Below are positions 1 to 42,009 of a DNA stretch of 64,000 nt, piece by piece (position 1 is the first letter of the stretch; each line of letters starts with the position of its first letter). Location of the stretch: sequence record NC_048194.1; one strand, written 5' to 3'. This stretch comes from Escherichia phage vB_EcoM_WFH. A program made the position numbers and the translations under genes. Under the pieces are notes generated by a model. That model had not been told where the DNA came from, did not search any database, and was given only the letters and a program-made list of their open reading frames with translations.

Positions 1-135
1 ATTTTGAATTAATTTAAATTAATTTTTTTCTACATCCTCATACTTATACTAAACTTATATTTATACGTATTATCCGTAAGATATAAGTAAAAACAAAGAC
101 TTGCGGCAATACGGATGATACGTCATGATACGCTT
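1..135. repeat. AT-rich tract plus iteron-like ATCCGTA / TACGGATGATACG motifs; partial second copy of the element at 16040-16320
   Basis: Read directly: 1-60 is almost pure A/T; ATCCGTA at 72-78, TACGGATGATACG at 110-122, ATGATACG at 125-132; same 9-mer family as the 16-kb element. Confidence 0.5.
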
Positions 136-279
136 CAACCAGCCAGCAGCGGCTAAGTCATTGATTTGCATAACAAGCGGCGAAAGGGATGGATTTCTTT
201 TATGCGTATCAAACAGTACACCACGCACCACGGTCCGATATTCATTCAGCACTATGATTTATGTACTTTTACAGCCAAT

Positions 280-308
280 TTGAACATCAATCTGCACTTG
301 AATATAAT
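280..308 (+). promoter_or_regulatory. sigma70-like promoter upstream of CDS 361-834
   Basis: TTGAAC (280-285), 17-nt spacer, TATAAT (303-308). Confidence 0.4.
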
Positions 309-360
309 GTTCAATCATTGTATAATTCACACTATTAATTTGCACTATGGGATTTGCACT

Positions 361-834
361 ATGAGTCAAGATTATGTAGCAATGCCTGAAGACTTTGAAG
401 ACCCGCGATTTGCAGAGCATAATCAGGCATTATTCGATGAGTTCATTGACCTTGTTATTCAGGGCCATGACATGCGCGCAGCTTTTGCACTAGTATTTGG
501 CATGGAGGTTGCGACCGATAACTACACTGGCCAGCGAATCCTGTGCACTCAGCGCAACCCGTACTACAAGATGCGCTACAAAAAGCGCATGGAAGAAATG
601 CCATTGAAGGAATTGTGGAGCGTAAAAAGTTCCATCCACAATTTAGTGAAGCTTGTGCGTGATCCAGAAGTCGCGGCGTCAGCCAAGCTTAATGCCATTC
701 GTGAACTGAATATCATCTACGGCATCACGATGATTGATGAAAATGGCAATAGTAAAATGGGCCGTTCCATGGACGATTTCTACAAGGATTTTGGAGAGGC
801 AGCCAAAGAGGGTGAGCAATTCTCCCGCCACTAG
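361..834 (+). CDS. Hypothetical HTH-like DNA-binding protein, possibly small terminase-like
   Basis: ORF 166-834 trimmed to the ATG at 361, which sits inside an ATTTGCACTAT copy; segment FDEFIDLVIQGHDMRAAFALVFG resembles small-terminase N-terminal HTHs; function not established. Confidence 0.45.
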   Translation: MSQDYVAMPEDFEDPRFAEHNQALFDEFIDLVIQGHDMRAAFALVFGMEVATDNYTGQRILCTQRNPYYKMRYKKRMEEMPLKELWSVKSSIHNLVKLVRDPEVAASAKLNAIRELNIIYGITMIDENGNSKMGRSMDDFYKDFGEAAKEGEQFSRH

Positions 835-853
835 CCAATTTGCACTATAAAAC

Positions 854-887
854 GGCCCTAGAACACATTTTCTCCACTTCTAGGGCC
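854..887. terminator. Stem-loop GGCCCTAGAA / TTCTAGGGCC with 14-nt loop, candidate intrinsic terminator
   Basis: Perfect 10-bp inverted repeat; T-rich flank only when read on the minus strand. Confidence 0.35.
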
Positions 888-1262
888 GTTGGTAATACGA
901 CGGGGAAGGCTGCAACCATGAACGCGTTAGAAAGTGTATTATTATAAGTCATCTTTTAGTCACTTTACGTAACAATTTACGACCTTCCGCCGTCCAGTCG
1001 AACGACTCCACCAGCAGATTTGCACTATAACCTAAGACGATGCGCCCCTTCTCGTTATCGACCCGCCAACAAGTCTCGAATAGCATTCGATTTGCACTAT
1101 TAACTATCGCCGCAACGCGCGTTGGGTAAGCGCAATTTGCACTATGGTCGTAAAGGGATAAGGTGCGACCACTGCCGATGGACAACGTAGCGATGAGAAT
1201 AAGCGTATTCATAAGCCACCAATTTGCACTATGAAAAGCGACCCCGAAGGGCCGCCATTCGA

Positions 1263-1889
1263 TTAGATAATCTGGAAGGTGTAGGACTTGTTGCCGAACT
1301 CGAAGTTCAAGCGCCCAGCTTCCTTAAGCTTCATGCGGAAGCGAATATGTTTGCTATCCGGTAAGCCCAGCGCGGCGAACGCTACGCGGACCGATTTGAA
1401 CTCGCCTACACCCTCGACCATAACGGCGTTACGGGTGAGACGCTTTTGCGCCACTTCCTTGTTATCCCAACTTTTTGCAATACCTTCGCTATTAGAACGG
1501 CGATGGGAAGGAGTTCCATTTTGCACTACGCAATTTGCACTATCGTTTAGGCCGCTCTTAACGAAGGCTTCATACTCTTCGTCGGTCATCGCGTCGAGTT
1601 CTTCCTGAGTCGGCTCGGCCTTTTTAACGACCGCACGCGCCTTATGCGTTTTTACATCGCTGGACACTTCCTCGCGCGGCTTCGCGTCGGGGATGGGCAA
1701 TTCGTTGGACGGCTCATCGAGCGCGTTTAAGGACTCGATTAACGCGATGACGCGAGTCTCAGCGGTGCGACGGTCCACAAACTTCTTAATCGGTTTTGAG
1801 CCGGAGTTGGCATTATAGAATGCAACGAGGTCGGCGGTCTTAGTTGCGATAACGTCGCCGCTAGTAGAAAAGCGATTTAAGCTAACCAT
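1263..1889 (-). CDS. Hypothetical protein, first gene of the CG-rich island
   Basis: 208-aa ORF; consensus RBS AGGAG before the ATG at 1889; two ATTTGCACTAT copies lie inside it. Confidence 0.6.
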   Translation of the reverse strand: MVSLNRFSTSGDVIATKTADLVAFYNANSGSKPIKKFVDRRTAETRVIALIESLNALDEPSNELPIPDAKPREEVSSDVKTHKARAVVKKAEPTQEELDAMTDEEYEAFVKSGLNDSANCVVQNGTPSHRRSNSEGIAKSWDNKEVAQKRLTRNAVMVEGVGEFKSVRVAFAALGLPDSKHIRFRMKLKEAGRLNFEFGNKSYTFQII

Positions 1890-1969
1890 AATAAACTCCT
1901 ATTTGTTAGGGCGCTAGGCGCGAAAGAATTTTATTAAAGCGCCGCGCACGACGCTCTAAAAATCCTCTC

Positions 1970-2284
1970 TTACTCTTCGTCGTCTTCGATTAATTCGAAG
2001 GCGAAGGCATAAGCTTTGCTATCGTAATTAACTAAAACGGCGAGTTCGAACTCGTTAATAAACGCCGTTTTACCGCATAAATTTAATTCCGCATCGACTT
2101 CGAAGAATCCGTTTTCGTCGCGCTCTAAGCGAGAAGCAGCGAGTTGCTCGATTACCGTCGCGTCGTTAATTTCTTCGCCTAAGCGAACGCCGGAGAATTT
2201 CGCGAGAATTTCGCCGTAAGTAAGCGTAACACCCTGGACTTCGGCGGTTGCGTTTTCGAGGGTGAAGCGGGTAACGATAGCCAT
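1970..2284 (-). CDS. Small strongly acidic protein (paralog family member A)
   Basis: 104 aa, net charge about -15, ends ELIEDDEE; RBS AGGAG; driven by the minus-strand promoter cassette at 2353-2380. Confidence 0.65.
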   Translation of the reverse strand: MAIVTRFTLENATAEVQGVTLTYGEILAKFSGVRLGEEINDATVIEQLAASRLERDENGFFEVDAELNLCGKTAFINEFELAVLVNYDSKAYAFAFELIEDDEE

Positions 2285-2352
2285 TTTAAACTCCTAGTTG
2301 GGAGAGGCGTTAACGACCTATTCGTTAACTCATCCCGTCCCGATATGAGTAC

Positions 2353-2380
2353 ATTATAATATAGTGTAGAAAAAAGTAAA
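2353..2380 (-). promoter_or_regulatory. sigma70-type promoter cassette, copy 1 (leftward)
   Basis: On the minus strand TTTACT, 16-nt spacer containing CTACACT, TATAAT; leader hairpin GAGTTAACGAATAGGTCGTTAAC matches the leader of copy 3. Confidence 0.6.
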
Positions 2381-2424
2381 GCACTTTTTCGATAAAAATG
2401 CGATAAATTATTTTATCTTTTTTC

Positions 2425-2452
2425 TTTACTTCTTCGTACACTCGCGTATACT
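2425..2452 (+). promoter_or_regulatory. sigma70-type promoter cassette, copy 2
   Basis: TTTACT (2425-2430), 16-nt spacer TCTTCGTACACTCGCG, TATACT (2447-2452). Confidence 0.6.
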
Positions 2453-2508
2453 TGTTTATATCGAGACGGGCGATGGCCCTTTCTTCTACTAGCATCGGGA
2501 GCTTTATT

Positions 2509-2811
2509 ATGACTACTTTAATCTCTTCCATCCTTACTTACGACGAAGACCGCTTAACCGTTCGCTCTCTTATCGCCGCCGTTAACGCGGAACTAGAATC
2601 TAGCGCCATCAAGGTCCGTGCCGTTGCCTTCGTCGGCCTTTCCTTCGACGATATTAAGTATGCAGAGTATAGCGCCATTCGCGTTGTTACTACCGACGAT
2701 AACGCCGTTACCCTTATCGAGACGGTTACGCCGCGCGGCGAAGCGTTAATTATCGTCGAGTATATCGACGTAGAAGGCGATAAAGCTTATAAATATTTTA
2801 TCGCAGAATAA
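2509..2811 (+). CDS. Small acidic protein (paralog family member B)
   Basis: ORF 2452-2811 trimmed to the ATG at 2509 after GGGAG; about 100 aa, net charge about -8; C-terminal DKAYKYF resembles SKAYAFAF of member A. Confidence 0.6.
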   Translation: MTTLISSILTYDEDRLTVRSLIAAVNAELESSAIKVRAVAFVGLSFDDIKYAEYSAIRVVTTDDNAVTLIETVTPRGEALIIVEYIDVEGDKAYKYFIAE

Positions 2812-2821
2812 CGAAAAGTGC

Positions 2822-2850
2822 TTTACTTCTTCGTACACTAAGACTATAAT
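2822..2850 (+). promoter_or_regulatory. sigma70-type promoter cassette, copy 3
   Basis: TTTACT (2822-2827), 17-nt spacer TCTTCGTACACTAAGAC, TATAAT (2845-2850); followed by leader hairpin GGTAGCG-AATAGGT-CGCTACC and RBS AGGAGA. Confidence 0.65.
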
Positions 2851-2917
2851 GTTTTATATCGAGAGGGGATGAGGTAGCGAATAGGTCGCTACCCTCCCGA
2901 CTAACTAGGAGAATATT

Positions 2918-3208
2918 ATGATTACTTTAGCCGCTATCCGTTCCGCTCGCGTCGAAACTTCCGAAAACTCTAACGTATTTGGCGAAAAACTTAAAAACGT
3001 TTATCTCTTTAACGTAGATGCGACTATCGAAGAGCTTCATAGTCCTATCGATTTTAGCGAATTTACGGAACTCGAAGAGGAAGATATTACTACCTTCCGC
3101 GTTACTATCGAAGGTAAGGTTTATTTTGCTACGGAGTTCGGCGGCGAATATCTCGCGGTATCCGAAGGCGAAGGCCGTTACTCTTTCTTTAAAATCGTCT
3201 CCTTATAA
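2918..3208 (+). CDS. Small acidic protein (paralog family member C)
   Basis: 96 aa, net charge about -10 (ELEEEDITT); RBS AGGAGA. Confidence 0.65.
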   Translation: MITLAAIRSARVETSENSNVFGEKLKNVYLFNVDATIEELHSPIDFSEFTELEEEDITTFRVTIEGKVYFATEFGGEYLAVSEGEGRYSFFKIVSL

Positions 3209-3228
3209 TACCCTTCCGTTACTAATAG

Positions 3229-3254
3229 GCCGCGCTTAGTCGCGGCTTTTCTTC
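3229..3254 (+). terminator. Rho-independent terminator
   Basis: GCCGCG-CTTAGT-CGCGGC followed by TTTTCTTCG, immediately after the CDS ending at 3208. Confidence 0.6.
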
Positions 3255-3372
3255 GTCCCTATCTCGATGCGCTTCTCCGCGAAAACTCCTTTATCCTTCC
3301 CTTCGTCGTCGCATAATCTTCGTCGAGATGCGCCTTAGTTCGCATAACAGGTATTACGTTAAATGGAGAACA

Positions 3373-3448
3373 TCGCGTAAGTCCTTGTTTTATATAGACA
3401 CCTATATCGGACCGTTAGGGAGGGTCGCGCAAGTCGTTGTTTTATAAA
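3373..3448 (+). repeat. Imperfect 24-bp direct repeat pair in a non-coding region
   Basis: TCGCGTAAGTCCTTGTTTTATATA (3373-3396) and TCGCGCAAGTCGTTGTTTTATAAA (3425-3448). Confidence 0.55.
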
Positions 3449-3571
3449 GGCGCAAAACTTTCCCTTCGTTCCGAACTAAAACGAGAAATATGCCGACCCT
3501 TCGCCCGAAAATAGTACGCATGCGAAATTACATGTATCTAGAATAATCCCCACCGATATTATCCTACACGC

Positions 3572-3629
3572 AATCATTAGCTTTCGAATCATTATGCTTC
3601 ATACTATTATGCGTCGAATCATTCGCTTT
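3572..3629 (+). repeat. Three direct copies of a 14-mer, GAATCATT(A/C)NGCTT
   Basis: Copies at about 3572, 3586 and 3616. Confidence 0.55.
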
Positions 3630-3723
3630 CTAATTGTAACGCTGGAAACTGTAACGGCGATTGATTATTGCGTTCGTGTGGTTTTTAGGGCATGGGTCTT
3701 TTGGTGCGTTTTGGTACTTGATG

Positions 3724-3836
3724 AAATTTGCAGTACACTAATCAAAATACGACACATTTGGTCCACTAACTTTTCAAAGAAAAAGTCCTAGACAGTACCG
3801 TACTATTTTGTACCCACAGTAAATTTGCAGTACACT
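3724..3836 (+). repeat. Two identical 16-mers AAATTTGCAGTACACT, 97 bp apart
   Basis: 3724-3739 and 3821-3836; the GTACACT core also sits in the spacers of promoter cassettes 2 and 3. Confidence 0.6.
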
Positions 3837-3905
3837 CCTGCGCGGCAGGCAAAAGAAAGGGCCGCCACAGCGACCCACGATTCACGGTTAAATCAGCAAC
3901 ACCCA

Positions 3906-4286
3906 CTATTCACTCTTATGGGCATCACCAAAGCCATCCGCAATCTGGCTGATCAATGATTCAATGGACACAGTTTTACCAATTGATCGAGCGGTAATAG
4001 CAAGCATATTATCAATCAAACCATGATTGGATGCATATGGTCCAGGTTTTGAATCATCTTCATGACAACCAAAAAGCTGATCGCGAAGACTTTCAAGAGA
4101 ACGCTCAATATTTTCCAGCTTCTCTTCTAAATCGGATTGGCGACGTAAAACCCATGTTAAGTCGCGGTTGCCGACTTCCAATCCATCATAATCGCAAGAT
4201 GGAACGTTAATTTTGATACTTCCACCAAAGGCCATTCCGCTGCCTTTAGCACATGTGCCGTGAATGGAATCATTCTTATTTGACAT
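3906..4286 (-). CDS. Hypothetical protein with a coiled-coil segment
   Basis: ORF 3906-4316 trimmed to the ATG preceded by AAAGGT; segment DLEEKLENIERSLESLRDQL. Confidence 0.5.
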   Translation of the reverse strand: MSNKNDSIHGTCAKGSGMAFGGSIKINVPSCDYDGLEVGNRDLTWVLRRQSDLEEKLENIERSLESLRDQLFGCHEDDSKPGPYASNHGLIDNMLAITARSIGKTVSIESLISQIADGFGDAHKSE

Positions 4287-4320
4287 ATCATTACCTTTCA
4301 TGAGGGTGATTAACAATAAC

Positions 4321-4344
4321 TATAATAAAGCCGCGTAGCGCGGC
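4321..4344 (-). terminator. Candidate intrinsic terminator
   Basis: GCCGCG-TAG-CGCGGC; on the minus strand it is followed by TTTATTATA. Confidence 0.45.
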
Positions 4345-4395
4345 ATTCAAATCGGTTTATTAATTGTAACGATTGGATTCATCAATCGATACCAA

Positions 4396-4615
4396 CTATG
4401 CTGGGTCGCCGGATACGGTCGAGCCAATGATGCCCATCTGCTGAAAGAACTCTGAATAAACTTCCTTCCAGTATTTACGGGCTGCTTTCTGTGCTTGGCC
4501 TTTGCGCTTGAAGCTTTTACCTTTTACCTTGAAATATGAAACGGTCTTTTGGCGCGGAATACTCCACCACACCTTCCAGCCATTGTAAGAATGCTACTGA
4601 TTCATTTTGATTCAT
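4396..4615 (-). CDS. Small ORF split across two frames; possible frameshifted or recoded gene
   Basis: ATG at 4615 with RBS GAGGT gives a 32-codon frame ending at 4517; an overlapping frame continues protein-like (KGQAQKAARKYWKEVYSEFFQQMG) to 4396; A-runs at the junction. Confidence 0.25.
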
Positions 4616-4622
4616 GTTAACC

Positions 4623-5018
4623 TCAACATTTTAATAAGAAAGCACCCAACCAACTTTCCTCAACCTCGCGGCCAGTAGCCACACGGTCTGTCTTTGCTAT
4701 GGGTCTGGATTCGCCGCAAGGCAATCCGTCTTGTAGTTGTGTACTATTGCCAATTCTCACCAGAACCTTTCCATCAGGGTCGATATAAGCGCGGCAACCC
4801 ATGATTTCGAGTCGTTGTAGACACTGGCGAATCGTTTTCAGCCTTTCACCGGACCGGATAGAGCGCGGTCGCGACCGTTGACCATTCTTATTCACTGTCC
4901 GCTTCACAACCGGAATCTCATTGGTGCGCTGCGCTTTCGGTCGGTAGTAGGCTTCTTCGCCAGGAGTCGCACCTGGCGTCAATTCGCGCTTGAGAGCCTT
5001 TTCAATATCGATGATCAT
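4623..5018 (-). CDS. Hypothetical basic protein
   Basis: ORF 4623-5090 trimmed to MIIDIEK; the Cys-rich N-terminal extension of the long ORF looks non-coding. Confidence 0.45.
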   Translation of the reverse strand: MIIDIEKALKRELTPGATPGEEAYYRPKAQRTNEIPVVKRTVNKNGQRSRPRSIRSGERLKTIRQCLQRLEIMGCRAYIDPDGKVLVRIGNSTQLQDGLPCGESRPIAKTDRVATGREVEESWLGAFLLKC

Positions 5019-5111
5019 AATTATGCCGCTGCAGCGTAAACAATTGCATAAGCAATTCCAAACAGCGCAGCAATACATACCGTGCCCCAAAATGCAAAGC
5101 GTCGTGACTCT

Positions 5112-5321
5112 TTATCCATTGTCCACCGCTCCAATATCCTTCAAGAACTTGTGCAAGTCGCCTTTCTTATTAAGCTTTTGCATAGTTTTGATATCATCAA
5201 GTGATATGCCTTGATCGCTTTGTTGTTTGTCAATGCAGACAATGCCGCCTTTCTTAGCCTTGATTGTCATGCCTTTGGCTTCAATACTTTTTACGAAATC
5301 GGACAATAATTTAATTTCCAT
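5112..5321 (-). CDS. Hypothetical small protein
   Basis: ATG overlaps the upstream stop (TAATG coupling) at 5321. Confidence 0.5.
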   Translation of the reverse strand: MEIKLLSDFVKSIEAKGMTIKAKKGGIVCIDKQQSDQGISLDDIKTMQKLNKKGDLHKFLKDIGAVDNG

Positions 5322-5611
5322 TAGAATCTTCTCCCACATCCATAAAAATTAAACACTAATTTTGCCATGTCATCTTGTGAAACGACACCGTAGTGTTTAG
5401 GCAAATTGCTTTCTGACAATGCCTTCTGGGCTTCTTCTTCTGTCTCAAACAAAGGGATGCACCAATTAGCTGCGTCGCCAGAATCATTGCTATCAACTTG
5501 TTTCAAGAAAACCAAGCGGTTGTCTTCAGGATCAATTCCGCAAATCACATATTTAGGCAACGCTTTTGCTTTTTGGGCCTTATCGATGTCTTCAAATTTC
5601 ATTTCATCCAC
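5321..5611 (-). CDS. Hypothetical protein
   Basis: 96-aa ORF with an acidic centre; no recognisable motif. Confidence 0.5.
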   Translation of the reverse strand: MDEMKFEDIDKAQKAKALPKYVICGIDPEDNRLVFLKQVDSNDSGDAANWCIPLFETEEEAQKALSESNLPKHYGVVSQDDMAKLVFNFYGCGRRF

Positions 5612-5684
5612 CTCACTTGTTAACGTATAATGAGTATAACTTAATAGTGCATAAAGTAAAGGCGCTGAAAGCGCCTTGAGTGAA

Positions 5685-8009
5685 TTATTTCGCTTCCTTT
5701 AGCGCGGCTATCTCTGCCTCTAGTGACTCGACCTTCTTCATCAACTCCTGCACCACGTGCATCGTATCCAAAAGCATAGGTGTTGTGTCAAGTTCTTTTT
5801 GTTCAACAATTTCTCCTGGATTGCTCCCAACATATTTGCGCGTCTTAACATATAAAGGCTCAACACCCTCTGCTTGCTGTGCAATCACGCCGTGCCGAAC
5901 TCGATTTTGTTCGTCATTGTCATAAATGAACTCTACAAATTCCAGTCCTTTAATATTAGAGTATGATTTGTCAACTCCAACAGGGGCGATGCCATGTTTT
6001 ACACGTGAGTCAGAAGTGCCATTTTTTGTATAACTGAAGTTACCGTAATCGGTTGAACCATATATTTGACCATCAATGTCAAAAAAGTAACGGCAAAATT
6101 TTCCGTTATCTCCACCGATTACCACACAAGCTATGCCGAATGCAGCATTACCTGGTAAATACATATGGTATCCAACCTTGGTTGGGTATCCATTAGGTTT
6201 GGTGGCACCGATAGAATAGCCGCGCACCAGAGTATCTGATCCACTCGCGATGGCCACTCTGTCCATTCCGTTAGTGGTCAAGTTAGATACAGCGGCATCC
6301 GTTATTCCATTCCATGTGCCTAAAGGCGTATACATGCGGAATGGGTTGGTCTTCCCTGACTGTCGAAAGTCAACGGTGCCATCTTCATAGAATTTATAAG
6401 CGTGCTTGGAAGAACCCTCCGCCTCTACGACTGCATAACTAGAAGAACCCCATGAAGAACTTGAGTACAGGCGTGCAAACTGTGATGAACTAGGATTGCT
6501 ATATTTTGACTCTACTTTGCCGCCGACAACCAGTGCGCCTGCCACTGGTGCGCTTGAGTCTGCATTGATTACGCTCCAAGACGTATTCGCAGCAACAAAT
6601 CCACCCGATGCACGAATCACCCAAACGCCAACGAAGTTACGGCCCATGATTTCACTGTTTGAACGGCCATAAACTGGGCTTGATCGACTGGCGTCAAAGC
6701 TTACACGTTGAATACCAGACCCCATGTCGTAGTTCTGTACAGGAGCCTCTGACTGGAAATACAGGAAAGGACCAGTAGCACCGTACTGAATGACGCCACC
6801 GATATTACCGATGATGTTAGGCGCAGCAGAATCAAACACAACACCATCAGCATTGGCGTTTGCCGTTCCATTCCCTGCACCATCACCTCGCCCATAGAGA
6901 GCGGCTAATGAACCAACTTGAACGCCGTTTCGGTCAGGCACGCGGAAAGTCGTTGTACCATTACCAAGTGAATACTTTCCGCGTTTTGTAGGGTCTGCAA
7001 GCCAGTCAGCATCAGCAATAGGAGTCAACATCTGCGCATAAGCCCAAAGCTCAGGCCAGTCTGCACGGTTAAGCAATTGCCCGTCTGCCACAACTTCATA
7101 CGGCTGGATGTATGCGCGACTATCACGTAAGTGAAAATCACCAACACCATAGTTCATTACACCGTTCATGTTCGGTCCAACGGTGCCAGTGTTTATAAGG
7201 TTTTGAACCCAACGTTTAGTCGCAGCATCATAATCATTCACAGGGTCACCAGCAAGCGGAGTTGGGCCTGTCGGTCGAATATTCAACCAAGCCTGCGCAT
7301 TATCCCCTGATCCTGTGCCACCCATGGAAGTGGGAACGATATTTTGATCAGCGACTTGTCCGAATCCAAAAGCAGATTTCATGCCCTGAATGGTAGTCTG
7401 GCCTGTACCACCATTTGTGACTGGGATTACATCTTTGTCGGTGTATATTCGCACCCAATTAGACCAAGCCGATGATGCAGCGGTGTATCTTCTTTGGTGC
7501 AGCGTGTTATTGGAATAAGTTGTATATCTTTGGATGCAACTTTCTGTGGCAACGCCTGTTTGTAGCACCTCAAGAACTCCCGCTTGTTCCACAGGGTAGT
7601 TAAGGGGTGCCGATGCGCCAGCATTTGCTGATTGGTGATATTGACCAAACCATGAACCAGTCAACGCATTAAGGTTGATGCCTGAGGGAATCTCTCCAAA
7701 GTTTCGGACAGTACCCGTCAAAGTCGCAGCAGTTGTTCGAATGGAAAGTAAATCACCAGCCGCCCATGCACGCGCTGCAGTACCTTCCTGTGCACGCTGC
7801 ACGGTCAGGACGTTTCCAACCACGGCTGTTACTGTGACTATTTCAAATTGTAGGCCTGTTGCAGCGTCGACGATTGTCGCCACTACACGCTCGTTTGCGC
7901 CCAAGGTCGGAAAGTCTGACCCTGAGCGAATTGTGATTGTGGTGTCTGAAGTTGTCGTTGGTTGAGCCAGCGCGACCTCAAAGTTGTTTTTGAATATTAG
8001 CCTTGGCAT
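5685..8009 (-). CDS. Tail fibre / tailspike with C-terminal intramolecular chaperone (peptidase S74-like) domain
   Basis: 774 aa; fibre-type N-terminal domain; Gly/Ser/Thr-rich shaft; C-terminal GTSDSRVKHG cleavage-type motif followed by a coiled coil (ESLEAEIAALKEAK); RBS GAGGA. Confidence 0.7.
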   Translation of the reverse strand: MPRLIFKNNFEVALAQPTTTSDTTITIRSGSDFPTLGANERVVATIVDAATGLQFEIVTVTAVVGNVLTVQRAQEGTAARAWAAGDLLSIRTTAATLTGTVRNFGEIPSGINLNALTGSWFGQYHQSANAGASAPLNYPVEQAGVLEVLQTGVATESCIQRYTTYSNNTLHQRRYTAASSAWSNWVRIYTDKDVIPVTNGGTGQTTIQGMKSAFGFGQVADQNIVPTSMGGTGSGDNAQAWLNIRPTGPTPLAGDPVNDYDAATKRWVQNLINTGTVGPNMNGVMNYGVGDFHLRDSRAYIQPYEVVADGQLLNRADWPELWAYAQMLTPIADADWLADPTKRGKYSLGNGTTTFRVPDRNGVQVGSLAALYGRGDGAGNGTANANADGVVFDSAAPNIIGNIGGVIQYGATGPFLYFQSEAPVQNYDMGSGIQRVSFDASRSSPVYGRSNSEIMGRNFVGVWVIRASGGFVAANTSWSVINADSSAPVAGALVVGGKVESKYSNPSSSQFARLYSSSSWGSSSYAVVEAEGSSKHAYKFYEDGTVDFRQSGKTNPFRMYTPLGTWNGITDAAVSNLTTNGMDRVAIASGSDTLVRGYSIGATKPNGYPTKVGYHMYLPGNAAFGIACVVIGGDNGKFCRYFFDIDGQIYGSTDYGNFSYTKNGTSDSRVKHGIAPVGVDKSYSNIKGLEFVEFIYDNDEQNRVRHGVIAQQAEGVEPLYVKTRKYVGSNPGEIVEQKELDTTPMLLDTMHVVQELMKKVESLEAEIAALKEAK

Positions 8010-8047
8010 TTTACGGTCCTCGTTTTGTCGACAACCGTATTATAGCC

Positions 8048-8389
8048 TTAATTTCTTTTGAGAGGAATATGACGGTTGCTGTCATTATTTGGTTTAATAA
8101 TGAGCATAAAAACGATTAGAAAGATGATGGCTGATATACTTAATTCAATCAGCGCGGCCTGAGATATGGATTGATCTTCATGATACTGCTTTTGCATTTC
8201 TGCTTTCTTCTGAGCGCAAACTTCAGGCGATATATAATCACCTTTTGAGTTGCCATAATAAATCTCGCCATTTTCAGAAATAAGTCTGCCGCAAATATCC
8301 GTATCGGCCTTTGCACTCGACATCATAATAACGGTGCCGATGATAGCAGCAATTGTCCAGATTAGCAGTTGTGATAAAGTATTGTTCAT
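8048..8389 (-). CDS. Small membrane protein with two predicted transmembrane segments
   Basis: ORF trimmed to MNNTL after RBS AAGAGG; hydrophobic N- and C-terminal stretches. Confidence 0.5.
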   Translation of the reverse strand: MNNTLSQLLIWTIAAIIGTVIMMSSAKADTDICGRLISENGEIYYGNSKGDYISPEVCAQKKAEMQKQYHEDQSISQAALIELSISAIIFLIVFMLIIKPNNDSNRHIPLKRN

Positions 8390-8585
8390 GATAACCTCTT
8401 TAAATTCCCTTCCCATATCGGGAAGGGCGAATGTTATTTTAAGCGAAAGAATAGGCGAGTGCCACACAGAGAGTCCCAACGGCCTTCGCCGTCCCATATC
8501 GACCCAACACCAGCGGTGATTGGGCCAGCAGAATTGGCGGCATTGGCCCAGGCGAGACGTTTTAATTTCCAACTGCACCAACGAT

Positions 8586-8819
8586 TCACAGTTCATCTCC
8601 AGACTTCAAAATTAATCCCGCATAGATTATTGCCAAAGCTAAAGGCGCACCGCCGCCAGCCTCTCTATTCTCTTTGATTTGAAGAGTATCTTTTAGGAAT
8701 TGAAGCTGAACGTTGAATTCATTTTCAATTCCAAGCACTCCAGCTAATTCTTTTACAGAATCTGCATATGCCTTGTCTATCACTTCTTTTGGCACCGTTA
8801 AGGTTAATTCATTTGCCAT
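8586..8819 (-). CDS. Hypothetical protein
   Basis: Start chosen at MANELT with upstream GGAGTGGAAAG. Confidence 0.45.
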   Translation of the reverse strand: MANELTLTVPKEVIDKAYADSVKELAGVLGIENEFNVQLQFLKDTLQIKENREAGGGAPLALAIIYAGLILKSGDEL

Positions 8820-9030
8820 TTTCTTTCCACTCCACAAATGTACTGCTACTTGTTTCTCTATTTAGCAGGTATCTGCCGCGCATTCCACGAAGGCTGAACT
8901 CAACCGTCGATGGATTAGATTTTGAAAGCCACATCACTTGACCGTCGAACGGTCCGCCAACGCATGTGTATTTGGCCTTTGGCTCACTCCTTTTGGGCCT
9001 CTTTGCCCGCTCTTTGATTGATAGTCTCAT
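8809..9030 (-). CDS. Hypothetical basic protein
   Basis: 73-aa ORF in operon-like packing with neighbours. Confidence 0.4.
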   Translation of the reverse strand: MRLSIKERAKRPKRSEPKAKYTCVGGPFDGQVMWLSKSNPSTVEFSLRGMRGRYLLNRETSSSTFVEWKENGK

Positions 9031-9245
9031 CAGTCTTCACCTTGAGATTCAAGACAAGTAAGAACAAGCCACGTCATCGGAAGAATCAAAACCAGAGAAA
9101 TAAGTGACCAAATGGACCAACACAAGATGACAGACTTGAATGTATGAACGTCGCCAAACACAGCAGTGAAACAAAATCCCATCACGAAAGCAAGCGCGGT
9201 GGAGTGGTTGTCAATGGCTTTGATGGCACGGTCGATGAGTTTCAT
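9030..9245 (-). CDS. Small membrane protein
   Basis: 71 aa with two hydrophobic helices. Confidence 0.5.
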   Translation of the reverse strand: MKLIDRAIKAIDNHSTALAFVMGFCFTAVFGDVHTFKSVILCWSIWSLISLVLILPMTWLVLTCLESQGED

Positions 9246-16006: not shown

Positions 16007-16039
16007 ATCGCCTGGCAATGGATTGCCGCAGGATTTTAC

Positions 16040-16320
16040 GCGTATAATGACGTATCATCCGTATCAAGTAAGTAGTTGTTTTCAAAAGAATCTTACGGAT
16101 GATACGGATGATACGCGTTGCCGCGATACTTTATAGGAATTCAAATAAATTAATTTAAAATTATATATCTAATTTAATTTTATTTTTTTATAAACTCTTA
16201 TATATGAAAAGTATCCGTATCATCCGTATCATCCGTAGCACACCAGTGATAGCGCGGCTTATACACCGATACGGATAAAAATACGCCTCATTTTATCCGT
16301 ATCATCCGTATCACACTAAT
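16040..16320. repeat. Origin-like element: inverted arrays of the 9-mer ATCCGTATC flanking a 70-bp AT-rich core
   Basis: CGTATCATCCGTATCA (16051-16066), inverted TACGGATGATACGGATGATACG (16094-16115), AT tract 16141-16210, GTATCCGTATCATCCGTATCATCCGTAGC (16211-16239), CGATACGGATA (16268-16278), TTATCCGTATCATCCGTATCAC (16293-16314). Confidence 0.65.
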
Positions 16321-16370
16321 TAAGGCGCGACTATATCGGTTGTTATACATATTCAAACCATAATTATTGT

Positions 16371-38949: not shown

Positions 38950-39927
38950 TTAAAAATACTCCATATCGGTAATATCACGGAAGCACTTATACAAGGCAGA
39001 GCGCGGCACGTCAACTATGCCAAAGTTAAAGAATTTATATGTCAAATACTTGTTTCGATAATTCTCGCGATTCTCCCAAAGCATTTTTCTCTCTGCCATA
39101 GGCATTGAACCAGCGGAGACGCGGAAGGGAATCATTTCACCTTTCTCATCAACATATTTTGGATTGACAACCACAAATGATCCAAGGTATCCTTTTGCAA
39201 CTAAGCCTTCAGCCTCTTTCGAACGCTTAGTGCGACCCAACTCATCAATGAATGCTTCGTTGTTATTCTCCATCATCTCAACGAAGTCTATGATCAGTCC
39301 TTCTTCATCGGTCCACGGCTTGTCCTTCCACACATCACGTGACTTTGGCGTCGCGCGGCCATGCTTGTATTTGCCCGTCCAAGACTTGCCATACAAGCCT
39401 TCATAGCCAAGCTGGTCTGCTTCGATTTGCATCGCCGCGTACTGTTCCATATTTTCGATGTTTCGATATTCGAGAGCGCGAAGGAATGGGCGTCGACCAT
39501 GGTTGATGAGGTGCTGATTGACTTCAGCAACTCTAGCGCGATAGTTTGCATAACGCTTTTCAAAAGGCAAATCAGGGTCGCTGAAGTCATCAAACACCCA
39601 CCATGTAAAGTTAGTGATTGCATCAGTGTTCATGCATGCAGTATAGGCCTGTTGCATGACGTTCTTGTCATTCGGATTACCGTCAATTAGCTCTCCATCA
39701 AGTCCGTGAATCAATTCACCCAAGAATAGGAACTCTTTTTTGATTTGAATGTTGCGCAGTGCCATGCCGGATGTGCCCATTGGCAAGTTGTCATACGCCA
39801 TCGCGCGTATTCCATCGACCTTGAAGGATAATCCGCAAGGCAGCGGCACATCTTCGCCGCGCTCGATGATTTGTTTACGCTGGCAACCTTTCATTGGTTT
39901 TAATGCTTTGATTTCTCCTGCCATCAC
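38950..39927 (-). CDS. ATP-dependent DNA ligase
   Basis: Motif I KVDGIR, motif III DGEL, motif IV VFDDF, motif V EGLI. Confidence 0.8.
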   Translation of the reverse strand: MMAGEIKALKPMKGCQRKQIIERGEDVPLPCGLSFKVDGIRAMAYDNLPMGTSGMALRNIQIKKEFLFLGELIHGLDGELIDGNPNDKNVMQQAYTACMNTDAITNFTWWVFDDFSDPDLPFEKRYANYRARVAEVNQHLINHGRRPFLRALEYRNIENMEQYAAMQIEADQLGYEGLYGKSWTGKYKHGRATPKSRDVWKDKPWTDEEGLIIDFVEMMENNNEAFIDELGRTKRSKEAEGLVAKGYLGSFVVVNPKYVDEKGEMIPFRVSAGSMPMAERKMLWENRENYRNKYLTYKFFNFGIVDVPRSALYKCFRDITDMEYF

Positions 39928-40517
39928 TCAAACTCCTTATTCATCACTTGTTCCAGCGCATAGGCATAAGCCTGATCAGTCGATTTAATAAACGTTCCGT
40001 TGTACATCACACCTTTACGGTCCTTGATGTCTTCATAGGCGGCTTGAGCGCAATCAGACAGTCGAAGTCCATAATCATGCGCTACGCCGGAAAGATAATC
40101 GACTGCGGCCATGATAGTGACATCAATATCCATGCTTTGATTTTTAGCAATGGCGTCACCAAGCCGTCCGAGAGTCTTCGCCAAGCGAAGGATAAAGGAA
40201 TGAGGGTGAGCGCCTTTGTCAGCGCAACCGCCTCCGTTGATGTCTTCGATTTTTGCACCATTTTGCGCGGCAAGAATAGTTAACACAACAAGGCAATCAC
40301 CGATGTCGTCCTTGATTGCGGCTTGCAAATCACAAATGGCCTGCTCTGTATATCCGATTTCAGGGTCAAAGAACACAAGGTCATGGAGTTGATCCACGTG
40401 GTCGGTCAACTCCCCAAACTCGCTAATAAGCTTCGGGTATTGGTCTTTAAGGCCGCAACCTTTGATGATGTTACGGTCAGAAGCCCATTGGCGAATGTTT
40501 GCATAAATCTGGTTCAT
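39924..40517 (-). CDS. mazG: MazG-like nucleoside triphosphate pyrophosphohydrolase
   Basis: All-alpha NTP-PPase pattern: EFGELTDHV and DDIGDCLVVLTILAAQNGAKIED. Confidence 0.65.
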   Translation of the reverse strand: MNQIYANIRQWASDRNIIKGCGLKDQYPKLISEFGELTDHVDQLHDLVFFDPEIGYTEQAICDLQAAIKDDIGDCLVVLTILAAQNGAKIEDINGGGCADKGAHPHSFILRLAKTLGRLGDAIAKNQSMDIDVTIMAAVDYLSGVAHDYGLRLSDCAQAAYEDIKDRKGVMYNGTFIKSTDQAYAYALEQVMNKEFE

Positions 40518-41032
40518 TTATTTTCCTTTGATGCGTTGAATTGGTCGATTTTAATTTTAGCCTGATTATAAGTATCAATCAAGCTATTAACTTTCTCTTT
40601 TAATCGGTTCGTTTCTGCGGCGAACTGAACAAGAAATCGGACATCCTCTTCTGATAGTCCACAGTTTCCTTCTGGGATAGAGAGGCGTCCAGTGGTCGCA
40701 GAGTAGGGCACACTCCTGAGTAATTCACGGGAACAGCTGAGTTGCTCGCGCAGCTTGATATTCCCAGACTTGTAACGAGCAATAGTGTCATCAGCAACCA
40801 GTTGCGCTTCCTGGCGACCCTTCTCATATGCCGATGCCGATTCAACCTGTAAAGATGCAATTTGCTCTTCGAGTGCATTTATCTTGTCCTTACGCTCATT
40901 AAGCGATGTCAGATATTGATTGTCCTTGGCCAGTGATGCGTTGGTTTGCTGAAGGTCTTCAACGTATGATCCAGCGGCGAACGCGCCAACAAGGGCCAGA
41001 ATCTTCAGTAGCGGTACAATTCTTTCTATCAT
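40514..41032 (-). CDS. Rz: i-spanin (Rz-like)
   Basis: N-terminal transmembrane segment then long periplasmic coiled coil; contains the embedded lipoprotein ORF. Confidence 0.6.
   Translation of the reverse strand: MIERIVPLLKILALVGAFAAGSYVEDLQQTNASLAKDNQYLTSLNERKDKINALEEQIASLQVESASAYEKGRQEAQLVADDTIARYKSGNIKLREQLSCSRELLRSVPYSATTGRLSIPEGNCGLSEEDVRFLVQFAAETNRLKEKVNSLIDTYNQAKIKIDQFNASKENK
40600..40827 (-). CDS. Rz1: o-spanin (Rz1-like) embedded in an alternative frame of the i-spanin gene
   Basis: MRRVARKRNWLLMTLLLVTSLGISSC: basic n-region, hydrophobic core, lipobox Cys, then Pro-rich segment; start could also be the downstream Met. Confidence 0.55.
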   Translation of the reverse strand: MRRVARKRNWLLMTLLLVTSLGISSCASNSAVPVNYSGVCPTLRPLDASLSQKETVDYQKRMSDFLFSSPQKRTD

Positions 41033-41089
41033 GATGCACCAGATAAATAAAAGGCCGCCAATCGGCAGCCTTGTTGATTTGATTGTCGA

Positions 41090-41950
41090 TTAAAACTCTT
41101 CTGCGTCGGTCGGAGTTTCATTGACAGGACCAGCGGCACCACTTGCTTCTTCCTGCTTGCTGCGGTCAATGTTAACGTTGCCGCCAACCACGTCGTTGTG
41201 GAATGCTTTGGCGACTTCGTACAGGCCTTTGTCCTGCACCAGACCTTCCAGCTCAAACTTCAGGACGGACCAGGTGTTGCCGTCTTTGGACTGAGACGCA
41301 GTACCCATGCGAACGATGTTCATGAAGGTCGGCGGCGTTTTCAGGCCCTGCGGAGTCTGAACTTTCTTCTGCTGCAGAGCGGTCATCAGCATGCGAGACG
41401 GCTTGATCATGGAAGAAGTCAGAGACAGCATTGCACTACCAAATTCACCAGTTTCTTCGTTCAACAGAATCACGAAGTGGTTACGTGTATCTGCGTAGTA
41501 AGGTGATTTCTTCTCGTGCACCTTGCCGTTTTCGTCTGGCACAAACACCTTACCGTTGATCTCAACAGCGCGGCCTGCCGCGACTTCTGCATCAACGTGC
41601 TCTTTGGTGAATTCACCTTTAAAGCCTTTATCGTCGGACTCGCGACCGCCCCAAAGGATGAAGGTGCGTTTGAATGCGCAAGGGATGATCTGCACGCCCT
41701 TCTTGCCGTCATACAATTCACCAGTAACGGTGTTGTACAGCATACCAGCTTTTGCGCCAGGAACGTGTTTTGGATCATCTTCGTCGACCATCGGAGACAT
41801 CTTTTGCAGTACGACGATAAAAGGAATGGCATAAGCGTCGGCATCGGCACCTTCAAAACCAGCGCCAAAATCGGTCATATCGACAAAATCAGCCATAGCG
41901 GACATCTGGGTGTTTTTTGCTGCAACTTCGGTAGTTTCTTTCTTAGACAT
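41090..41950 (-). CDS. Putative single-stranded DNA-binding / recombination protein
   Basis: 286 aa ending in an acidic tail that terminates in Phe (TDAEEF), a hallmark of phage SSBs; fold not verified. Confidence 0.4.
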   Translation of the reverse strand: MSKKETTEVAAKNTQMSAMADFVDMTDFGAGFEGADADAYAIPFIVVLQKMSPMVDEDDPKHVPGAKAGMLYNTVTGELYDGKKGVQIIPCAFKRTFILWGGRESDDKGFKGEFTKEHVDAEVAAGRAVEINGKVFVPDENGKVHEKKSPYYADTRNHFVILLNEETGEFGSAMLSLTSSMIKPSRMLMTALQQKKVQTPQGLKTPPTFMNIVRMGTASQSKDGNTWSVLKFELEGLVQDKGLYEVAKAFHNDVVGGNVNIDRSKQEEASGAAGPVNETPTDAEEF

Positions 41951-42009
41951 TTGGTGTTTTCCTATAGTATCAAGTTTCGTGGCAACCTGATTTCAAGATA
42001 AAGGTTAAA

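Follow-up and report, generated by a model that had tools for sequence, protein, structure and literature searches.

Natural selection that removes nearly all CA/TG dinucleotides and all GATC sites from both strands underlies the odd composition of an island near the left end of the genome of this phage, a Wifcevirus myophage with Escherichia coli and Shigella as hosts, of which a stretch of 64 kb (the window) was analysed. The island is probably the first-expressed gene module of this E. coli phage, as judged from promoter type and position only, and immediate-early host takeover or anti-defence is the most likely role of the module formed by genes A, B, C and D. Taken together, these features lead us to regard the segment, with reasonable though limited confidence, as an immediate-early (pre-early) host-takeover or anti-defence module of a Wifcevirus myophage that is located in the terminal repeat and combined with evasion by loss of CA/TG and GATC.

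The island makes up the right two-thirds of a direct terminal repeat of about 3.8 kb (Table 1). A terminal repeat of 3,673 bp is annotated in phage Mansfield on the basis of PhageTerm, and the right-end copy in phage WFC, where the WFC record stops, has 95.4% aligned identity to positions 1–3782 of the window. Two transcription units are predicted in the island, a leftward unit in which P_A is followed by A and D, and a rightward unit in which P_B and P_C are followed by B and C, and both appear to be closed by terminator-like elements.

Table 1. Features of the terminal repeat and the island (window positions; a dot marks features assigned to neither strand)
Feature	Position	Strand	Description
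Direct terminal repeat of phage genome	1..3782	.	~3.8 kb; position 1 is the left genome end
Terminator-like hairpin	1228..1260	-	just past the D stop codon; putative, from sequence only
Gene D	1263..1889	-	208 aa, basic, pI 8.9; second gene of the leftward (A) unit
Zone depleted of CA/TG, GATC-free	1300..3600	.	core 1900-3300; CG and TA enriched in compensation
Gene A	1970..2284	-	104 aa, pI 4.07, net charge -15, C-terminal IEDDEE tail
5' leader of A	2285..2352	-	hairpin 2309-2329, GUUAACG [AAUAGGU] CGUUAAC; Shine-Dalgarno AGGAG
Promoter P_A	2353..2380	-	TTTACT, 16-nt spacer, TATAAT
AT-rich tract between divergent P_A and P_B	2381..2424	.	candidate UP elements (TTTTCGATAAAAATGCGATAAATTATTTTATC); read from sequence, function putative
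Promoter P_B	2425..2452	+	TTTACT, 16-nt spacer, TATACT
Gene B	2509..2811	+	100 aa, pI 4.39, net charge -8
Promoter P_C	2822..2850	+	TTTACT, 17-nt spacer, TATAAT
5' leader of C	2851..2917	+	hairpin 2873-2893, GGUAGCG [AAUAGGU] CGCUACC; Shine-Dalgarno AGGAG
Gene C	2918..3208	+	96 aa, pI 4.40, net charge -10
Intrinsic terminator after C (predicted)	3227..3248	+	8-bp stem, 6 G-C pairs, then TTCTTCG
Conserved non-coding DNA past C terminator	3249..3600	.	CA/TG still depleted to ~3500 (per-100-nt counts)

The segment had been singled out in the original prediction as richer in G+C and in CG dinucleotides than its surroundings. Windowed G+C does not bear out the first part (0.468 versus 0.462, with only the part carrying D reaching 0.51–0.53); the second part holds, with a CpG observed/expected ratio of 1.96 in 1260–3260, where the mean of the window is 1.12 (sd 0.25). 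This CpG richness is one side of a depletion of CA/TG that reaches beyond that segment, to about 1300–3600. The value of rho*(CA/TG) is 0.43 over 1263–3700, with a minimum of 0.11 in 3001–3300, compared with 1.18 in the rest of the window (300-nt windows, sd 0.20), and the eight trinucleotide pairs containing CA/TG are the eight most depleted in the island, headed by CAG/CTG (0.10). GATC is absent from the 1300–3600 zone, where about seven sites are expected, and occurs once in the 7.4 kb of pooled islands (p = 2e-17), while the whole genome is partly depleted (102 observed versus 232 expected). The dinucleotide signature distance between the island and the rest (delta* x 1000) is 219, whereas other 2.4-kb segments average 48 and reach at most 119.

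The depletion is seen at synonymous sites and codon junctions, in the amino-acid content and in the flanking non-coding DNA. Against the numbers of CA+TG expected for each gene from synonymous resampling, A contains 11 (38.7 +/- 4.0 expected), B contains 11 (37.3 +/- 4.1) and C contains 5 (30.7 +/- 3.7), with an intermediate depletion in D (52 versus 77.6 +/- 5.7). CA or TG is formed at 12% of the pyrimidine–purine codon junctions of the island genes compared with 59% in reference genes, and each island protein contains 1–4 residues of Gln, His, Cys, Trp and Met together, where about ten are expected. Both CA and TG are depleted on the sense strands of genes of both orientations, as well as in non-coding DNA; the sense strand of C retains one CA and four TGs.

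A composition that serves expression, in which the removal of TG and CA yields clean, stable and highly translated messages rather than evasion at the DNA level, is in our view very unlikely. The loss of TG would remove NTG starts, TGA codons and both –35-like (TTGACA) and extended –10 (TGn) sequences, and the loss of CA would remove ACA-type toxin RNase sites; consistent with this, the depletion peaks in the most strongly promoted genes and fades along D and beyond, the real –35 element TTTACT is TTGACA minus its TG and its CA, and many of the residual TGs are start codons or lie at conserved regulatory positions. However, CA is as strongly depleted as TG on the sense strands, the depletion runs about 250 nt past the terminator into non-coding DNA, and the enrichment of TA makes more, not fewer, –10-like sequences. 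Moreover, CTG, the preferred leucine codon of E. coli, is nearly absent from the island, the loss of GATC is left unexplained, and the early regions of T7 and T5, which are also very strongly expressed, have no such depletion.

The signature is under ongoing purifying selection against CA/TG, which is arithmetically indistinguishable from selection for CG plus TA. Some 110 substitutions between strains have left the CA+TG count of the island unchanged, although their random placement would take it from about 55 to about 80 +/- 5; in a control region the substitutions agree with the random expectation. Since substitutions between strains avoid creating CA/TG, the signature is maintained and is not decaying towards the genome average. 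The depletion recurs in five lineages of enterobacterial phages. Every Wifcevirus genome matched contains the island, at 90–98% identity, which is similar to the rest of the genome; Kylevirus and two metagenomic relatives have it in syntenic position, and in a Myosmarvirus it occupies another genome position. The syntenic islands of Kylevirus, L073 and L075 bear the same signature even though their proteins are only about 30% identical, and so does the island of the Myosmarvirus. In the Serratia phage, the island copy of D has 12 CA+TG in 507 nt, whereas its other D paralog has 79 in 663 nt. To our knowledge, there is no precedent for a stretch of 2 kb held nearly free of one dinucleotide on both strands in several phage genera.

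These observations run counter to the proposal of a recently acquired cassette, and a horizontally acquired island that retains the composition of a foreign donor is the least probable of the explanations considered, already largely refuted. The atypical composition given above and a gene content of the slots that differs between strains would fit such an origin. However, the presence in close relatives is general rather than patchy, extending to related genera; no integrase, transposase or flanking repeats were found at the island; and, as the substitutions indicate, its composition does not drift towards that of the recipient. Nor did a plausible donor composition emerge: in 506 kb of unrelated viral contigs no 1-kb window had a CA/TG value below 0.70, and the combination of a CG rho* of about 2 with CA/TG of 0.2–0.4 lay outside every window. 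The full scan of Pseudomonas phage 14-1 revealed no region with low CA/TG together with CG of about 2 and TA above 1; one 500-nt window went down to 0.56 in CA/TG, but with normal CG and very low TA, and GATC sites were common in the parts of 14-1 examined. The link of the depletion to enterobacterial hosts takes its contrast from one fully scanned Pseudomonas relative.

A further claim, that three genes of the segment stand behind near-identical expression cassettes, was borne out by sequence searches. Matches to TTTACTTNTTNNTACACT were found at 2363–2380(-), 2425–2442(+) and 2822–2839(+) and nowhere else in the 64 kb, with a chance expectation of 0.15. As predicted, TTTACT, a spacer of 16–17 nt, TATAAT or TATACT and a ribosome-binding site are present at all three; a conserved TATATCGRGA follows the –10 element at each site and is itself followed by the leader and the Shine–Dalgarno sequence, in that order. 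The modules in front of A and C are inverted copies of each other over 149 nt (75% identity, E 8e-18), and P_B and P_C have 48 nt in common at 83%. All three are predicted sigma-70 promoters with –35 and –10 elements near TTGACA and TATAAT, in which the hexamers match at 10 of 12 positions in P_A and P_C and at nine of 12 in P_B, with a perfect or near-perfect –10 in all and with spacers of 16 or 17 nt, inside the 16–18 nt usual for this class. Sigma-70-like early promoters have been mapped in a relative, Pbunavirus 14-1 (PMC10914365). The three modules are near invariant across the Wifcevirus loci examined, with single spacer, –10 or leader substitutions in a few strains (P_A of RCIP0319 differs by one spacer substitution), while the proteins downstream of them vary between loci. 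The module also occurs in Kyle, L073, L075 and Serratia phage KKP 3709, partly with the same spacer (CTTTACTTCTTCGTACACT), in front of proteins that are only about 30% identical, and there too TTTTCGAAAA-type tracts lie upstream.

The leader hairpin that had been noted in two of the cassettes is supported for A and C by compensatory base changes. Its helix of 7 bp is paired in four of four sequences, with compensatory changes at five of the seven pairs, the A leader covarying with the C leader and with a Serratia phage leader, and its AAUAGGU loop is invariant across the E. coli and Serratia phages. The minimum free energies are –19.5 kcal/mol for the A leader (z –2.9) and –21.7 kcal/mol for the C leader (z –2.6), whereas the fold of the B leader is unremarkable (z –0.17). 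A search of positions 1–5000 with the covariance models of Rfam 15 gave no match at E up to 1.

At the end of the rightward unit, a G+C-rich hairpin with a T-run is found at 3227–3248(+), where Mansfield and WFC carry a terminator annotation. Its putative counterpart at 1228–1260(-) is a hairpin of –18.0 kcal/mol, GGCGGCCC-UUCG-GGGUCGCU, followed by UUUUC. The DNA beyond the C terminator is 94% homologous to SP13 DNA that is annotated as non-coding until a 42-aa ORF call starts near window position 3590; SP13 has an additional 69-aa gene upstream of this DNA. The idea of a strongly expressed early module is thus in keeping with its context, namely the terminal repeat, the host-type promoters with AT-rich upstream tracts, the strong ribosome-binding sites and the predicted terminators at both ends.

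The three proteins of about 100 aa are, as had been predicted, strongly acidic (96–104 aa, pI 4.07–4.40, net charge –8 to –15), but their description as triplicated paralogs did not hold. BLASTP detected no significant similarity among them, the best pair being A and C (23% over 78 aa, E 0.2). The A family aligns with the family of C and A' end to end but weakly (hhalign E 0.017), where A' is a true C paralog that occupies the A slot in sister strains (33% identity over 89 aa, E 1e-7); B showed no similarity to A and C, profile against profile included. It is the regulatory module that is triplicated, whereas a triplication of the proteins is not demonstrable from their sequences. No sequence match of A, B or C to any family was found in Pfam, PHROGs, NCBIfam or the PDB. 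Homologs of A occur in Wifcevirus-size contigs, in Pantoea phage Kyle (gp6, 33% identity) and, by eye, in a Serratia phage (a 114-aa protein), and distant homologs of B stand in the second position of the L073 and L075 islands (27–30% identity). For C, which exists as two deeply diverged alleles within the genus, a search of 1.84 billion representative proteins found only three clusters. C is the one protein with a confident structural model, a predicted alpha+beta fold ending in a four-stranded beta-meander (AlphaFold2, pLDDT 86, pTM 0.75), and this model matched neither solved structures nor known DNA mimics. D matches phrog_4730 (E 4e-87), and its tblastn matches span 354 phage records, among them those of Pbunavirus, Serratia, Xylella and Pantoea phages, by which it is identified as a core gene of the PB1-like phage clade.

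A phenotype is available for an anti-defence role to explain, since Wifcevirus phages are reported to resist all restriction–modification systems tested except EcoP1_I, with no protection mechanism known (PMC11990801). That A, B and C are Ocr-like or ArdA-like DNA-mimic anti-restriction proteins triplicated from one ancestor nevertheless seems unlikely to us. Their small size and strong net negative charge are those of the DNA-mimic class, and the resistance of the genus, the first-expressed position, as with T7 gene 0.3, the presence of A' in the A slot and the weak alignment of the two families are compatible with such a history; for mimicry as such, acidity is the sole supporting feature. 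Against this proposal, no sequence relationship to known DNA mimics was found for A, B and C and no fold relationship for the model of C, the database searches above returned no family, and B resembles neither of the other two. Furthermore, the main targets of known mimics are type I restriction enzymes and BREX, but the resistance that has been reported extends to types I, II and III.

Gene content varies around the constant regulatory modules. The slot behind the leftward promoter P_A holds A, or A', or nothing, D being placed directly behind P_A in ECML-117 and RCIP0319; extra island genes are present in AV128, SP13, F13 and ECML-117, and F13 carries a recombinant duplicated cassette. Comparison of these loci shows the gene slots to be exchangeable, with the repeated promoter–leader modules as the sites of recombination.

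In its outline, the island resembles known early modules. Bacillus phage SPO1 has a host-takeover module in its terminal redundancy, with small genes mostly of unknown function and a strong host-type early promoter and a strong ribosome-binding site before each gene or pair. Like the modules of the SPO1 and T5 type, the island lies inside a direct terminal repeat, and in it a strong host-type promoter and ribosome-binding site precede each of several small genes; unlike that of SPO1, as generally known, it comprises only 4–6 genes in about 2.3 kb, and no sequence relationship was detected in Pfam or PHROGs. We know of no CA/TG or GATC purge in SPO1. The T5 pre-early region likewise places first-expressed genes in the (left) terminal repeat, with repeated motifs near the repeat boundary, and takes over the host before the rest of the genome is expressed, as the island may do; however, it is 10 kb long, large proteins (A1 and A2, for example) are among its products, and two-step entry of DNA is known for T5 but not for Wifcevirus. 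With a CA/TG rho* of 0.93 and 23 GATC sites, T5 first-step-transfer DNA has therefore undergone no purge (its CpG ratio is 1.34 versus 0.76 in the next 50 kb). In T7, the genome end that is first to enter carries the class I early region with its strong E. coli promoters, and the first product, Ocr (gene 0.3), is small, very acidic and anti-restriction. The island proteins are similarly small and acidic but have no homology to Ocr, nor does the model of C match its fold, and the T7 early region is normal in CA/TG (rho* 1.08 over the first 12 kb). T7 avoids GATC genome-wide (three sites in 12 kb), whereas the Wifcevirus genome does so partly and the island completely. Counter-selection of GATC in enterobacteriophages was reportedly described by McClelland in 1985 and by Deschavanne and Radman in 1991; the likeness is that phages of Dam-positive hosts strongly avoid the Dam/MutH/SeqA site, the difference that the avoidance is total only in the early island here and accompanies a far broader purge of CA/TG. 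The leading regions of conjugative plasmids, as the first-available DNA, also carry small, variable anti-defence genes with dedicated promoters. As in these regions, the DNA first expressible in a new cell would here hold small variable genes with promoters of their own, but the plasmids use single-stranded-DNA promoters and carry ardA, psiB and ssb, with no genes in common found, and we are aware of no dinucleotide purge described for them.

We propose that at DNA entry the unmodified host sigma-70 RNA polymerase would fire three copies of one strong promoter module, composed of an AT-rich upstream tract, a CTTTACT –35, a conserved spacer, TATAAT and a conserved TATATCGRRA start region. Transcription from P_A would proceed leftward through A and then D to the terminator near 1230–1260, and transcription from P_B and P_C rightward through B and C to that at 3227–3248. 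Short leaders, two of them with a 5'-proximal hairpin and its invariant loop, and strong Shine–Dalgarno sequences would give high mRNA and protein output, and the acidic A, B and C and the basic D would act on host targets in takeover or anti-defence. As to the selection, our guess is that the island may be the only phage DNA that needs to work before any countermeasure exists and would therefore be kept invisible to a DNA-reading factor of the enterobacterial (Dam-positive) host. Candidate readers of GATC are Dam, SeqA and MutH; we know of no host factor that reads a bare CA:TG step. An evasion confined to 2 kb would shield the genome only if the factor blocks expression and does not cut DNA, or if the remaining DNA enters later.

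Alternatively, an early phage nuclease, DNA-modifying enzyme or DNA-binding shutoff protein may target CA/TG (and GATC), and the module may have been purged of targets as self-immunity, an explanation to which we give little credence. It would agree with a selection-maintained depletion limited to first-expressed DNA, with the richness of the host genome and of the remaining phage genome in CA/TG, and with CAG/CTG as the most depleted pair. T5 first-step-transfer DNA survives a degradation of host DNA that depends on its pre-early genes, in a manner that is unexplained, and by analogy the island might be protected in a similar way; the restriction–modification resistance, for which no mechanism is known (PMC11990801), might also fit. 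However, the remaining phage genome has normal CA/TG and would be hit unless it entered later or had other protection, and searches of A, B, C and D turned up no domain of a nuclease, methyltransferase or other DNA enzyme. In addition, EcoRI and EcoRV sites, of which the window contains 15 and 7, are without CA/TG, so a CA/TG-specific modification would not explain resistance to these enzymes.

In conclusion, early modules in terminal repeats are already known, and in outline the island is an ordinary one. Its composition implies selection by an agent able to recognize very short features of DNA in the first moments of infection. We suggest, tentatively and with slightly more doubt than conviction, that an enterobacterial myophage clade keeps its first-expressed DNA without CA:TG steps or GATC because of such a DNA-reading agent. 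The agent might belong to the host, as a defence or nucleoid factor by which incoming DNA is silenced or attacked, or to the phage, as an effector to which the module needs immunity. If the suggestion is true, codon choice, codon pairs, the form of the –35 element and amino-acid composition are all dictated by a constraint of this strength. The island is also a compact candidate for the basis of the restriction–modification resistance and the reportedly very fast infection cycle of Wifcevirus, and the sliding-window CA/TG ratio is an easy means of searching other phages for modules of this kind. Since an in vitro genome-assembly system exists for a Wifcevirus (PMC11074155), recoding experiments are feasible, and naming the selective agent might uncover a host barrier or a phage takeover activity that is new.

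The original prediction, of a compositionally distinct segment at 1260–3260 carrying three cassettes for acidic proteins, proved to be largely right, although it mis-described the G+C content, the relationship between the proteins and the age of the segment. The segment was said to be richer in G+C, and its value of 0.468 is close to the 0.462 found elsewhere; its richness in CG dinucleotides was upheld by windowed statistics, with a CpG observed/expected ratio of about 2 over 1500–3700, compared with 1.12 ± 0.25 for the window. In terms of the strand-symmetric dinucleotide ratio (rho*), the composition of the island (taken here as 1263–3700) shows one primary change, which is in CA/TG: its value is 0.43 in the island and 1.18 in the rest of the window, accompanied by 1.95 versus 1.08 for CG and 1.16 versus 0.65 for TA, while all other dinucleotides are essentially the same in both. 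In 300-nt windows CA/TG (mean 1.17, sd 0.20) is lowest, at 0.11, at 3001–3300, and among trinucleotide pairs depletion is strongest in the eight that bear CA/TG, ranging from 0.10 for CAG/CTG to 0.52 for GCA/TGC. The sole window below 0.7 outside the island in the 64 kb is a marginal 0.69 in a repeat array at 16.1–16.4 kb. A CpG-rich spot at 15.7–16.5 kb was considered as a second island and rejected, as it is explained by this AT-rich array of iteron-like, CGTATCATC-type repeats (CA/TG rho* of 0.69), which may be a replication origin or a protein-binding array.

On the sense strands CA is about as rare as TG for genes in either orientation, and the depletion runs about 250 nt beyond the terminator into noncoding DNA; the constraint therefore lies on the double-stranded DNA and not on the messages. 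With the protein sequences held constant and the phage's own codon usage applied, the genes of the acidic proteins A, B and C would be expected to contain 38.7 ± 4.0, 37.3 ± 4.1 and 30.7 ± 3.7 CA+TG, respectively, and contain 11, 11 and 5. At codon junctions the third-position pyrimidine follows the next base, with C before G and T before A, and CA or TG occurs in 12% of pyrimidine/purine junctions, compared with 59% in reference genes. The proteins themselves are affected, as Gln, His, Cys, Trp and Met together account for four, one and two residues of A, B and C, versus about ten expected. Codon optimization for E. coli is ruled out, since CTG is nearly absent, and optimization of expression is in general an improbable cause of the depletion. 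GATC is missing from the island, where about seven sites would be expected; general avoidance of palindromes or restriction sites is also ruled out, since the CA/TG-free palindromes TCGA, CGCG, TTAA and TTCGAA are enriched and GATC alone is missing. GATC is scarce in the rest of the genome as well, with 102 sites observed at 4001–64000 versus 232 expected from the base composition.

The island is ancestral and under selection. It is present in every Wifcevirus genome matched, at the 90–98% identity that is typical of the rest of the genome, and an exhaustive profile search with C against 1.84 billion representative proteins returned two distant clusters only, the contigs of which (the metagenomic relatives L073 and L075) share the layout of the window: a small-terminase-like gene, a small leftward gene, a homolog of the basic protein D, and C-like and B-like acidic proteins. 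The signature of these contigs is equal to or stronger than that of the window (CA/TG of 0.23 and CG of 2.31 in L073; CA/TG of 0.42 in L075). Pantoea phage Kyle (Kylevirus) is arranged likewise, with an acidic protein resembling A and a CA/TG as low as 0.19, and the island of Serratia phage KKP 3709 (Myosmarvirus) has a CA/TG of 0.16–0.24 and almost no GATC. The latter island lies about 3 kb from that phage's normal D gene, and of the two D paralogs, the one within it (8687–9193) contains 12 CA+TG in 507 nt, whereas the one outside (4977–5639) contains 79 in 663 nt; the composition thus tracks location and not protein family, and a depletion tied to the D gene is excluded. Pooling of four islands gives a single GATC site in 7.4 kb (p = 2e-17). 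Selection acts against both CA/TG and GATC. Across about 110 substitutions among Wifcevirus strains the CA+TG count is unchanged (for example, 57 versus 49), whereas a count of about 80 ± 5 is predicted if these substitutions fall at random. In a control region located beyond the terminal repeat, the count agrees with the random expectation. The recent acquisition that had been proposed is contradicted by this distribution across genera and by the maintenance of the signature, and it is very improbable that the composition is a relic of a foreign donor.

The Pseudomonas relative 14-1 lacks the signature, and in unrelated viral contigs totalling 506 kb the lowest CA/TG value of any 1-kb window is 0.70. 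The depletion is not a general trait of coliphage early regions, as CA/TG is 0.93 in the first-step-transfer DNA of T5 and 1.08 in the early region of T7. In T5 the CpG ratio is 1.34 in the first-step-transfer DNA (1–9100) versus 0.76 in 14001–64000, with CA/TG nearly equal in the two regions (0.93 versus 1.02). This compositional change, in a pre-early region that likewise belongs to a terminal repeat, is weaker and of a different kind.

Over its first 6 kb the window is 91–98% identical to Wifcevirus myophages that infect E. coli and Shigella, with CWP003 (97%) among the best, and window position 1 is the left genome end. A 3,673-bp direct terminal repeat is annotated in phage Mansfield (PhageTerm-based), and the right-end repeat copy of phage WFC aligns with window 1–3782, where the WFC record stops; the 1260–3260 segment therefore lies inside the terminal repeat, together with the small-terminase-like gene and a direct-repeat cluster to its left. 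To the right of the island the terminal repeat ends and a leftward gene block runs towards the tail fibre. The features of the region are collected in the table.

Features of the left terminal region and the distal repeat array
Feature	Position	Strand	Remarks
Copy related to the distal array	108–133		Extreme left end of genome
ATTTGCACTA(T) repeats	338–1542	+	Ten copies (8 exact, 2 with one mismatch)
Small-terminase-like gene	361–834		Left of 1260–3260 segment, within terminal repeat
D	1263–1889	−	Basic, 208 aa
Hairpin then UUUUC		−	3' of D
A	1970–2284	−	104 aa, pI 4.07
Divergent promoter spacer	2381–2424		Holds GCGATAAATT and TCGATAAAAAT
B	2509–2811	+	100 aa, pI 4.39
C	2918–3208	+	96 aa, pI 4.40
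Terminator			3' of C
AATTTGCAGTACACT (variant repeat)	3724–3739, 3821–3836		Either side of right boundary of terminal repeat (about 3782)
ATCCGTATCATCCGTATCA/TACGGATGATACGGATGATACG iteron-like array	16020–16330	Both	AT-rich, intergenic, between tail-fibre-like ORF and head maturation protease gene

The ATTTGCACTA(T) copies all fall within a 1.2-kb stretch that surrounds the small-terminase-like gene, towards the left of the terminal repeat, and the other 60 kb holds just two copies, each with one mismatch. The repeats might be recognized by the terminase or in packaging, or they might act as phage-specific promoters that read rightward, antisense to the leftward early genes. The start codon of the small-terminase-like gene sits within one ATTTGCACTATG repeat copy. 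In the Mansfield annotation this gene encodes the small subunit of the terminase, on an HHpred match to Sf6 TerS; the gene for the large subunit, with which the Bas99 record opens, is distant from it.

Three near-identical promoter cassettes, two of them with a conserved leader hairpin, had been predicted, and both features were recovered. The window contains exactly three matches to the pattern TTTACTTNTTNNTACACT, and all of them lie in the island (0.15 expected). In each case TATAAT or TATACT follows after 16–17 nt, and beyond it come a conserved TATATCGRGA, a leader and a ribosome-binding site of the AGGAG type. TTTACT, the −35 hexamer, is TTGACA minus its TG and its CA. Over 149 nt the module 5' of A is an inverted copy of the one 5' of C, with 75% identity, and the promoters of B and C have 48 nt in common at 83%. 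Among IMG/VR contigs the pattern is multi-copy in Wifcevirus contigs only, and the single matches in other contigs look like chance. The identical module type precedes the island genes of Kyle, L073, L075 and the Serratia phage, in the common order of an AT-rich TTTTCGAAAA-type tract, CTTTACT, spacer, TATAAT and TATATCGRRA. The spacer CTTTACTTCTTCGTACACT is identical in several of these phages, although the proteins are only about 30% identical; both it and the start region therefore have a function, which may be to bind RNA polymerase or a regulator. The repeated modules also recombine, as in phage F13 (4522–4940) a duplicated promoter–leader module of C is fused with the 3' part of gene B. 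The words in the divergent promoter spacer resemble the H-NS high-affinity motif, TCGATAAATT, and TCGA and CGATA-type words are enriched across the whole island.

The leader hairpins of A and C are real (z of −2.9 and −2.6), and the leader of B is unremarkable. The 7-nt loop, AAUAGGU, is invariant, while the stems differ among the leaders of A, C and a Serratia gene; the helix of seven pairs is paired in every one of the four sequences compared, with compensatory changes in five of the seven. A search of window 1–5000 gave no Rfam family match for the hairpin, which begins within a few nucleotides of the inferred 5' end of the transcript and could serve in mRNA stabilization, regulator binding or an AGGU-type ribosome contact.

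The prediction of three acidic proteins of about 100 aa was likewise confirmed, whereas their paralogy was not: pairwise BLASTP among A, B and C gave no significant similarity, and B is unrelated to A and C by BLASTP or profile–profile comparison, while A and C show a weak relation by these methods. In roughly half of the strains the place of A behind its promoter is taken by A' (94 aa), which is clearly paralogous to C (33% identity over 89 aa, E of 1e-7); the A of the window resembles A' weakly (E of 0.07), and the A and C/A' families give a weak end-to-end alignment (hhalign E of 0.017). D lies downstream of A in the same orientation, and in ECML-117 and RCIP0319, which lack A, it directly follows the same promoter and leader. 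The alleles of C fall into two deeply diverged types (62–65% amino-acid identity, dS of about 0.65–0.70), whereas the genes next to it are 93–100% identical; dN/dS of B is 0.14–0.26, and D and the small-terminase-like gene are under far stronger constraint. Additional small genes are present in AV128, SP13, F13 and ECML-117. Searches of Pfam and NCBIfam with A–D and the neighbouring genes gave nothing significant, as did PDB sequence searches, and in PHROGs the sole matches were those of D and the TerS-like protein, each to a family whose function is unknown. The structure predicted for C had a pLDDT of 53, too low for use, when the alignment was shallow, and of 86 once two distant homologs were added. 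Acidity is the sole feature that A, B and C share with DNA mimics. No account of the region was found in the literature on Wifcevirus, the phage names or early-gene dinucleotide depletion.

In conclusion, the best-supported reading is that the island serves, from within the terminal repeat, as an immediate-early module for host takeover or anti-defence. Its logic resembles that of the SPO1 host-takeover module, the T5 pre-early region and T7 gene 0.3, to which it is unrelated in sequence. The depletion may reflect evasion of a host DNA-reading factor ahead of takeover, an explanation that we hold tentatively and at somewhat less than an even chance, and which ties to the known counter-selection of GATC in phages of Dam-positive hosts; self-immunity to an activity encoded by the phage itself is an unlikely cause. 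Wifcevirus phages resist all restriction–modification systems tested except EcoP1_I, by a protection mechanism that is not known (PMC11990801), and this resistance would be a plausible phenotype for the module. The Bas99 annotation places genes for a FabG-like reductase, polynucleotide kinase and thymidylate synthase side by side at 39634–42061, and this cluster, if it were a DNA-modification pathway, would bear on the unexplained resistance. Although a module of this kind is already known in outline, the present example is a new variant, and its surprising part is the composition free of CA/TG and GATC, which is kept by selection across genera and is directly testable.
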